Source: Candidatus Thorarchaeota archaeon (GTDB lineage Archaea; Asgardarchaeota; Thorarchaeia; Thorarchaeales; Thorarchaeaceae). From it: a stretch of 64,000 bases of DNA. The notes under the pieces were generated by a model, which was not told the DNA's origin, ran no database searches, and worked only from the letters and a program-made list of their open reading frames with translations. Positions 11,066 through 40,395 of the stretch are shown here, in pieces; position 1 is the first letter of the stretch, and the number at the start of each line of letters is the position of its first letter. The stretch lies in NCBI GenBank assembly GCA_029855935.1, contig JAGSHN010000005.1, forward strand, positions 96,001 through 160,000, written 5' to 3'. The translations under genes and the position numbers were made by a program.

Positions 11066-11655
11066 TGCCTGTCACTTCCACTGGGTGGCGGTCCAGCAAT
11101 CTCCCAACCCTTCACTATCGAGCTGAGCGGGGTCAATGAAACCTCGACTATGTCAGGGCGCTTCCTCAGAGACTCCACAGTCTTCTCGACCCCAGCCTCG
11201 TCAGGTGCCACAATGAGTGCATAGAGTGTCATAGGCTCACTGCTCACGCCAATCCACTGAAATGCATCCTCCGTCGATAGTTCCTCCGCAAGCGTCTGAG
11301 TCCTATTGCTGCTGATTGATGGGAGGATGTGGCCGCCAACCTTGATCCTGACGAGCCCGGCTGCGTTCAGTCCGAGCGCCCGCGGATTGAGTAGCGCGGA
11401 GAATCGTGAAACTATCCCGGACTTGAGAAGGCGCCGCGTTCTGAAGTGAACTGTTGTGTCGGGCTGGTTGAGCTCTCGTGCAATCTGTGTGAATGGGAGG
11501 CGTGCATCTCGCTGTAGGATGCGGATAATCTTCCAGTCTAGGTCATCCACGGTGGGCCACCCGGGATAGTCTATCAAGGGTAGGCCATGTTGCCCCATTG
11601 ACCTATTAAGACTTGCGTGGTTCGCAAAACGTCGCGTGATGATTGAGAGATTCAC
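11062..11655 (-). CDS. Lrp/AsnC family transcription regulator (true start probably downstream)
   Basis: DDLDWKIIRILQRDARLPFTQIAREL...TVHFR HTH signature. Confidence 0.85.
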   Translation of the reverse strand: MNLSIITRRFANHASLNRSMGQHGLPLIDYPGWPTVDDLDWKIIRILQRDARLPFTQIARELNQPDTTVHFRTRRLLKSGIVSRFSALLNPRALGLNAAGLVRIKVGGHILPSISSNRTQTLAEELSTEDAFQWIGVSSEPMTLYALIVAPDEAGVEKTVESLRKRPDIVEVSLTPLSSIVKGWEIAGPPPSGSDRQ

Positions 11656-19370: not shown

Positions 19371-19475
19371 GGGCCCGTAGCTCAGCTTGGTGGAGCGGCA
19401 GGCTCATAACCTGTATGTCTGGCGGATAGTCGGACAGGGGAACGGTCAGGGGTTCAAATCCCCTCGGGCCCACCA
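19371..19475 (+). tRNA. tRNA with CAU anticodon, likely tRNA-Ile2, with 28-nt non-canonical intron at 43/44 (19415-19442)
   Basis: GGGCCCG acceptor, GCAGG-CTCATAA-CCTGT arm. Removing 19415-19442 gives a standard 77-nt cloverleaf ending ACCA. TATA-like ttaatat about 30 nt upstream. Confidence 0.9.
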
Positions 19476-20298: not shown

Positions 20299-20387
20299 TC
20301 GCTGTTAGAAACGGCTGGGAGAGGCGTTTTTTATAGCGTCTCGACAGCAAGCTTAATATTGACAGCAATTGGGAAAATCGATTAGGT

Positions 20388-20522
20388 GCCGCCGTGGCTC
20401 AGTCGGTAGAGCGACAGCCTGTTAAGTTGTAGTGCAATGCAGTCCGCGTTGCACGACGACTGGTCGGAGGTTCGAGATGCACAGTGATGCCATTGTGCAC
20501 GGGAACCCTCCCGGCGGCGCCA
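20388..20522 (+). tRNA. tRNA-Asn(GUU) with two non-canonical introns (43/44: 20431-20460; 59/60: 20477-20505)
   Basis: GCCGCCG acceptor, ACAGC-CTGTTAA-GTTGT arm, GGAGG/CCTCC T-stem, GCCA end. Both inserts are hairpins in BHB-like context. Confidence 0.92.
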
Positions 20523-20660
20523 CTCTTCGATTCTCATTCTTTCCCGTCCTCGTAGAGACCATCCACTGATATCCTACGGCCCATGTGATGTATACACAAT
20601 GAAAACGAGTAAATACAGGTGAGGTGACGAGGCCGAAGACAAGACAGGACGGCGACTCCG

Positions 20661-40294: not shown

Positions 40295-40395
40295 TGGCGG
40301 GCCAGGAGGGATTCGAACCCTCGACCAACAGGTGACTCCACTCCCGTATCGGGAACTTAAGAGCCTGTCGCTATACCTGGCTTAGCCACTGGCCC
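40295..40395 (-). tRNA. tRNA-Lys(CUU) with 24-nt canonical 37/38 intron (40334-40357)
   Basis: GGGCCAG acceptor, ACAGG-CTCTTA|intron|A-CCTGT, BHB helix CTCT/GGAG, GCCA end. Confidence 0.95.

Follow-up and report, generated by a model that had tools for sequence, protein, structure and literature searches.

A tRNA-Asn gene with two non-canonical introns in a Thorarchaeota genome

The 64,000-nt stretch of Thorarchaeota DNA analysed here (the window) carries at positions 20388-20522, on the plus strand, a tRNA-Asn(GUU) gene that reads as three exons and two introns. The original prediction, which proved to have transcribed the locus exactly, had placed an intron of 30 nt at 43/44 and one of 29 nt at 59/60, and both are confirmed by insertions in the Rfam alignment, by intronless orthologs and by the exact register of the splice motifs. 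Very probably we are dealing with a functional gene, probably the only tRNA-Asn(GUU) gene of its genome, giving rise to a precursor of ~135 nt whose two introns would be cut by the endonuclease EndA and whose exons would be joined by the ligase RtcB. The host assembly (2.97 Mb in 32 contigs, 97.3% complete) comes from an Asgard archaeon of the Thorarchaeota, which shares its genus with a Candidatus Thorarchaeota metagenome-assembled genome (MAG), so the earlier description of the locus as a multi-intron tRNA in an Asgard-like genome holds. Among public sequencing runs, the 2-kb region around the gene was matched by one hydrothermal-vent DNA metagenome, the likely source, and by no RNA run; nor did the gene alone match any RNA run.

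Gene structure and exon-intron junctions

The Rfam tRNA model (RF00005), applied to 20388-20522, could be aligned over its full length (model 1-70 on window 20388-20518; 44.5 bits, E 1.2e-08). This alignment contains two insertions of ~31 nt, of which the first follows the anticodon stem and the second lies in the T-loop. With default filters and the whole window as target, the same model returned the 5' part of the Asn gene only (33.5 bits), and ARAGORN, run with introns allowed and with either the window or the whole genome as input, did not find the gene at 20388-20522. Once the exons are joined, ARAGORN calls a tRNA-Asn(gtt) of 76 bases with a regular cloverleaf, as had been predicted for the removal of both introns. 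In BLAST, exon 1 matches the spliced product at 43 of 43 positions.

Exon 1 (20388-20430, plus strand), delimited by the Rfam alignment, covers tRNA positions 1-43 and thus holds the 5' strand of the acceptor stem, the D-arm and the whole anticodon arm with its GUU anticodon. It is followed by intron 1 (20431-20460, plus strand, 30 nt) at 43/44, the junction of anticodon stem and variable loop, which was located by structure scoring, empty-site orthologs and covariation. Exon 2 (20461-20476, plus strand), placed by Rfam and the orthologs, spans tRNA positions 44-59 with the variable loop UGGUC, the T-stem 5' strand GGAGG and the T-loop bases UUCGAG, and intron 2 (20477-20505, plus strand, 29 nt), located by scoring for the full bulge-helix-bulge (hBHBh') motif and by covariation, lies in the T-loop at 59/60. 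The gene closes with exon 3 (20506-20522, plus strand; Rfam, orthologs and ARAGORN), which supplies tRNA positions 60-73, namely T-loop C60, the 3' strands of the T-stem and acceptor stem and the discriminator G73, together with an encoded CCA. An encoded CCA is present in most Thorarchaeota Asn genes; the orthologous genes L013, L037, L045, L046, L047, L015 and L016 end in GCGCTC or GCGCTT and not in an encoded CCA.

A putative archaeal TATA element, the TTAATATT box, can be read at 20353-20360 (plus strand), ~28-35 nt upstream of tRNA position 1. A TTAATAT box occurs at equal distance (~28-35 nt) upstream in all nine of the orthologous Asn genes inspected, in surroundings that have diverged, and this conserved box is presumably the promoter. 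Downstream of the gene, a pyrimidine-rich trailer, CTCTTCGATTCTCATTCTTTCCC (20523-20545, plus strand), is likely the termination region as judged by its composition, and T/C-rich trailers also lie behind orthologous Asn genes. Synteny around the gene is conserved and takes in a ZIP-family transporter on the upstream side along with two downstream genes.

To place the junctions we aligned the predicted spliced product, in a splice-aware manner, to every orthologous locus; these loci had been located through DNA similarity and by scanning for an exact pattern. Two Thorarchaeota species (loci L028 and L043) have an uninterrupted 76-nt Asn gene. The L028 gene departs from the predicted spliced product at D-loop position 17 alone, and across the two sites both genes have GTTGT-TGGTC and TTCGAG-CCCTCC, identical to the spliced product. 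In both introns, moreover, the final base is not the one that ends the preceding exon, and the initial base is not the one with which the following exon opens, so that the boundaries cannot slide and the junctions are unambiguous. The exons are collinear and all three lie within 135 nt, which is not the arrangement of a split or permuted tRNA gene. We also considered self-splicing introns of group I or group II and rejected them, the inserts being 29-30 nt long, against the hundreds of nucleotides expected of such introns, and the tRNA family being the only one that Rfam reports here.

Intron motifs and splicing enzymes

Motifs were scored with a central helix formed by the 4 nt upstream of each 3-nt bulge and with cleavage after the second bulge base. 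Intron 2 forms the full hBHBh' motif, with a score of 4 central, 9 inner and 5 outer pairs. Its central helix, UUCG/CGGG, has 4 bp, two of them G.U, and is flanked by the bulges AG^A and AA^C; the intron hairpin has 9 bp, and the outer helix is the T-stem itself (5 bp). Comparison of 16 distinct orthologs indicates that this structure has been maintained, as 93.8% of the cells of the 59/60 motif are paired, against 36-53% in slid controls, and 11 of its 18 pairs (including 8 of the 9 hairpin pairs) have changed on both sides; the T-stem covaries too. The score and this covariation uphold the full bulge-helix-bulge (BHB) that had been proposed for intron 2.

For intron 1 the boundaries and the bulge proposed originally stand. 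A full BHB is not formed, however, as there are three of four central pairs and no helix lies beyond the 3' bulge. What we find is a relaxed bulge-helix motif scoring 3 central, 9 inner and 0 outer pairs, which is not hBHBh'. In its central helix G39-C, U40-A and U41.G are paired, and A38 faces a G and is unpaired. The 5' bulge, GU^A, adjoins a hairpin of 9 bp, and the 3' splice site, AC^U, has no closing outer helix. Intron 1 accordingly fits the relaxed HBh' or bulge-helix-loop class. Moving the boundaries by 1-6 nt either way destroys the BHB geometry in both introns, and dinucleotide-preserving shuffles of the introns equalled the observed quality of central helix plus hairpin in 0.0001 of trials for intron 1 and in 0 of 20000 for intron 2.

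The 43/44 motif is likewise conserved. Over 11 distinct orthologs 90.2% of its cells are paired, compared with 17-55% in slid controls, with compensatory changes in 6 of the 9 hairpin pairs. All 11 form the three central pairs, the fourth, between A38 and the base preceding the 3' bulge, is formed in only 4 of 11, and the outer helix is absent from the 43/44 introns of all orthologs. Scored likewise, the canonical 37/38 introns of the Thorarchaeota family have only three central pairs in 19 of 20 cases, so that three of four is normal for introns in this lineage. Since the bulge-helix-loop class is permissive as a motif (10.64898/2026.10.13.758758), our argument for intron 1 relies not on the name of the motif but on orthologs with empty sites, on the exact register and on covariation. 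We also examined the unconstrained minimum-energy fold of the precursor, in which bases 38-43 pair with the 3' end of intron 1 in a register without bulges; the cleavable conformer is thus not the most stable one in isolation. Neither BHB is displayed exactly in this fold, and we preferred the comparative evidence as a guide to the cleavable conformer.

The host genome encodes two EndA paralogs, each with an N-terminal and a catalytic-type C-terminal EndA domain. The alpha paralog (196 aa, contig C5, 20491-21081) has as its closest match the catalytic subunit of the Aeropyrum pernix enzyme (3p1z_B, E 3.8e-47), and also matches Sen34 and Sen2. Its alignment to the A. pernix subunit is gap-free through the crenarchaeal-specific loop (CSL), with K51/K53 opposite K44/R46 of the CSL, and its GPGIDHAPF motif, which includes the catalytic histidine, is identical to that of A. 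pernix. The second paralog (211 aa, contig C14, 203174-203809) is 32% identical to alpha and has a serine at the position of the alpha histidine, which marks it as a structural beta subunit. [quoted passage not shown] An RtcB ligase is also present as a 492-aa open frame at G000:C21:241723-243030 (PF01139, 595 bits).

Biochemical work on A. pernix EndA, and on a chimera carrying its loop, established that the loop confers cleavage at non-standard intron positions, that cleavage on the loop side of bulge-helix-loop substrates depends on the CSL lysine K44, and that CSL-bearing EndA cuts such substrates in vitro without other factors (PMC3241643). Like the A. pernix enzyme (PMC3241643; PDB 3p1z, 3ajv), the Thorarchaeota alpha subunit keeps the loop lysine and the catalytic Tyr/His/Lys context; unlike it, the Thorarchaeota enzyme is predicted from sequence, and its beta subunit is full length, with 211 aa and both EndA domains. 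An (alpha-beta)2 EndA with the L1/CSL loop was already reported for Asgard archaea in a previous study (PMC5829648).

Transcription, cleavage, ligation and any order of splicing we infer from these features. Transcription from the conserved TATA-like promoter would yield a three-exon precursor of ~135 nt. The 59/60 intron would refold the T-arm into a canonical bulge-helix-bulge in which bases 54-57 of the T-loop are paired to the 3' end of intron 2 and the T-stem acts as outer helix, each splice site falling after the second base of a 3-nt bulge. In the 43/44 intron the 5' splice site would lie in a proper bulge beside the 9-bp hairpin and the 3' site in an open, loop-like context; because the central helix borrows anticodon-stem bases 39-41, the stem must partly open for cleavage. 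The heterotetramer-type EndA, with its catalytic alpha subunit and a beta subunit lacking the catalytic histidine, would cut both introns, and RtcB would join the three exons to a 76-nt tRNA with its CCA already encoded.

Several features of intron 1 could also be accommodated by a functional gene in which this intron is cut not via the relaxed motif drawn here but by an ordered pathway or a different transient pairing, for instance with the T-loop intron removed first, or with a modification or a protein reshaping the anticodon arm before EndA acts. Such a route would account for the missing outer helix and mismatched fourth central pair of intron 1, the competition of its central helix with the anticodon-stem pairs 29-31/39-41, the different register of the minimum-energy fold, and the lack of an outer helix in the 43/44 introns of all orthologs. 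We nevertheless consider it unlikely, since the three central pairs and the bulge beside the hairpin have been kept in every one of the 11 distinct orthologs, canonical 37/38 introns in the family mostly have three of four central pairs too, and a CSL-bearing EndA requires no help to cut bulge-helix-loop substrates in vitro (PMC3241643).

Copy number and other tRNA genes

Cleavage of both introns by EndA and ligation by RtcB remain our preferred account, in which 20388-20522 serves as the functional tRNA-Asn gene. Genome-wide, Rfam gave 38 tRNA hits and ARAGORN 42 calls, with no other GTT anticodon among them, and genome BLAST with the spliced product and with the exons revealed no second Asn gene, 20388-20522 being the sole locus. 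Two structure-aware regular-expression scans for GTT anticodon arms with tRNA-like D-arms also gave no gene besides this one. A match at C28:100532-100551 was rejected as a second Asn gene, being a 20-nt D-arm-like stretch without tRNA context. The gene is thus probably the sole tRNA-Asn gene of the genome, the assembly being 97.3% complete and not closed; the check for a second candidate that had been suggested with the original prediction brought up none from Rfam, ARAGORN, BLAST or the pattern scans. Independent assemblies of the genus, including one of 10 contigs that is 98% complete, have the same architecture, with one Asn locus detected in each. Because the only Asn tRNA that we found is missed by standard finders, automated annotation would wrongly report an organism without tRNA-Asn.

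That ARAGORN misses the gene, and that the assembly is incomplete, might suggest a decaying pseudogene or tRNA-like relic with two insertions, Asn being decoded by a gene on unassembled sequence. This is highly improbable, as the exons match intronless orthologs and fold into a clean cloverleaf, the promoter box has been retained, compensatory changes maintain the structure of the inserts, for which selection is required, and independent genus assemblies repeat the architecture with a single detected Asn locus each. It is scarcely credible that the inserts persist as expansion hairpins in the mature tRNA, given that a 29-nt hairpin in the T-loop at 59/60 would disrupt the T-loop/D-loop elbow, a conserved and established element of tRNA structure, that each insert is in exact register with its splice motif and has a 3-nt bulge at either end, and that close relatives lack one or both at precisely these sites.

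Other tRNA genes of the genome are interrupted as well. About 1 kb upstream of the Asn gene, a tRNA-Met(CAU) gene (window 19371-19475, plus strand; Rfam 59.9 bits) has a 28-nt insert at 43/44, the sequence of which is unrelated to that of the Asn 43/44 intron. A tRNA-Lys(CTT) gene (window 40298-40395, minus strand) has an intron of 24 nt which, according to ARAGORN, lies in the anticodon loop and so is of canonical type. Of the 42 ARAGORN calls, 35 fall on three of the 32 contigs of the host assembly (G000), namely C14, C17 and C21; C14 and C17 have a G+C content of 0.537, lower than most of the assembly (about 0.56). Both finders left Tyr, Phe, Val-CAC, Thr-CGT and other isoacceptors uncalled, and these are probably hidden multi-intron genes. 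At G000:C14:205118-205252, ~1.3 kb downstream of the EndA beta gene, ARAGORN finds a tRNA-Asp(gtc) of 135 nt whose 39-nt intron has an odd position; this is likely another multiply interrupted tRNA. The program also calls a tRNA-SeC(tca) at G000:C5:29220-29310, ~8 kb from the EndA alpha gene; selenocysteine use is reported for other Asgard archaea, and the call is consistent with that.

Asn introns across Thorarchaeota and relation to known systems

Elsewhere in the genus the gene was found in three more MAGs, and all three have the same two introns at unchanged positions, with 85-88% identity over the whole precursor. Introns at 43/44 and 59/60 are shared, too, by members of two additional genera (L034/L057 and L007). 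Across Thorarchaeota the orthologous Asn gene has 0, 1, 2 or 3 introns distributed over six positions (22/23, about 28-30, 37/38, 43/44, 50/51 and 59/60), and at all six the introns are 28-34 nt long (loci L003-L075), uniform whatever their sequence. For example, the gene at L053 (G181:C90, about 11232-11338) has a single intron, an insert of 31 nt that interrupts the D-arm at 22/23. The genus represented in the window is without the otherwise common 37/38 intron, which it either lost or never had.

Architectures differ over short distances. Within one genus we observed introns at [43,59] in L057 (G159) versus [37] in L073 and L075 (G133, G162), and the very close relatives L045 and L047 differ in having [37,50] and [37,43,59], respectively. 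In a tree of three flanking proteins the [37,50] species is sister to the [37,43,59] species with a bootstrap of 99 and branches of about 0.02-0.03. The deep nodes of this tree are poorly supported (40-58), and so we do not polarise gains and losses or claim an ancestral intron state. The 37/38 introns of close relatives have strongly different sequences. The comparison suggests fast turnover or allele exchange at the Asn locus.

Using an intronless ortholog as query, we surveyed the Asgard phylum for the same positions, as had been suggested originally; introns at 43/44 and 59/60 were absent from the Asn genes recovered outside the family, in a search whose sensitivity is limited by the short exons. 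The Asn genes of family f20 are intronless, and in f16 one Asn gene has a 17-nt intron near 38-41. Non-Asn tRNAs (Thr, Lys) among the survey matches were discarded. The two introns of the window are restricted to part of one family, undergo gain, loss or replacement even within genera, and are absent from the Asn genes recovered in other Asgard families; they therefore look like recent lineage-specific events and not ancestral states. A blastn-short search for copies of either intron elsewhere in the genome gave chance matches of at most 13 nt.

We noted a resemblance between introns at two neighbouring positions. Introns at 50/51 (L013, L015, L016, L039, L045, L046 and L068) and at 43/44 (L011, L037 and L047) have a mean identity of 0.67, equal to the value within the 43/44 class, compared with 0.48-0.59 for other pairs of classes. 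The 43/44 and 50/51 introns never occur together, and genes with a 50/51 intron lack the 59/60 intron. The 3' GGCU of these introns can pair with AGUU (38-41) or with GGUC (45-48), and the latter pairing gives a full BHB at 50/51 with a score of 4/9/3. A single intron family thus appears to be present at two sites that lie 7 nt from each other. We raise tentatively, as a rather doubtful proposal, that the Asn locus is a natural allelic series for BHB-intron mobility, in which an intron might relocate by reverse splicing, or an equivalent RNA-guided route, to sites complementary to its 3' end.

Multi-intron tRNA genes with non-canonical intron positions have long been known in the crenarchaeal order Thermoproteales, for example in Pyrobaculum and Thermofilum (PMC4033280, which cites the Thermoproteales tRNA intron studies of Sugahara 2007/2008 and Fujishima 2010). 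As in that order, the introns described here are short, predicted to be protein-spliced and of BHB or relaxed BHB type, with several per gene and at positions in the D-arm, anticodon stem, variable region and T-loop; shared too are an (alpha-beta)2 EndA with the crenarchaeal-specific loop and genes that standard tRNA finders miss. In contrast to the Thermoproteales, where intron transposition between tRNA genes is reported, no intron copies were found in the host genome, the host is an Asgard archaeon, and intron length is unusually uniform at 28-34 nt.

For Asgard archaea, heavily interrupted tRNA genes have already been published, and the window gene fits that picture. In 2018, tRNA sets were predicted for four Asgard genomes, including one of Thorarchaeota, and linked to (alpha-beta)2 EndA (PMC5829648); in 2024, 92-95% of the tRNA genes of Atabeyarchaeia and Freyarchaeia were described as intron-bearing, over half with several introns (PMC11291895); and in October 2026 a preprint census of 90 Asgard genomes described repeated gains, with strong canonical motifs in T-arm introns and weaker ones in the variable region (10.64898/2026.10.13.758758). 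So far as their main texts go, the published cases and ours have in common the non-canonical positions, several introns per gene, repeated gains, an (alpha-beta)2 EndA with the L1 loop, and T-arm introns with strong canonical motifs next to variable-region introns with weaker ones. They differ in that those main texts centre on Freyrarchaeaceae, Jordiarchaeaceae and Atabeyarchaeaceae; the string "Thorarchae-" does not occur in the main text of the 2026 preprint, and the main texts of the Asgard papers do not describe the Asn gene of the window or the family-wide Asn allele series. The literature texts covered yielded nothing useful on earlier listings of 43/44 and 59/60 as intron positions.

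The original prediction had further held that such a gene bears on how the 37/38 specificity of the eukaryotic tRNA splicing endonuclease (TSEN) arose. TSEN works by measuring from the mature domain, and 37/38 is the only position at which it cuts. The two systems are alike in their homologous endonuclease fold and in the cut-and-ligate chemistry to be expected, but in the present gene the intron positions are 43/44 and 59/60, local RNA structure defines the introns, and a 37/38 intron is lacking. As these introns seem young, are lineage-restricted and are explained by an enzyme of known broad specificity, we do not retain this claim, and the window locus alone does not inform the origin of TSEN specificity. 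Our results add Thorarchaeota to the Asgard lineages with well-documented non-canonical and multiple tRNA introns. If relocation between 43/44 and 50/51 were true, it would offer a concrete mechanism of intron arrival, which the 2026 census left open. With empty sites, six intron positions and within-genus polymorphism, the Thorarchaeota comparison offers a clean system at one locus for studying how introns are gained, lost and relocated.
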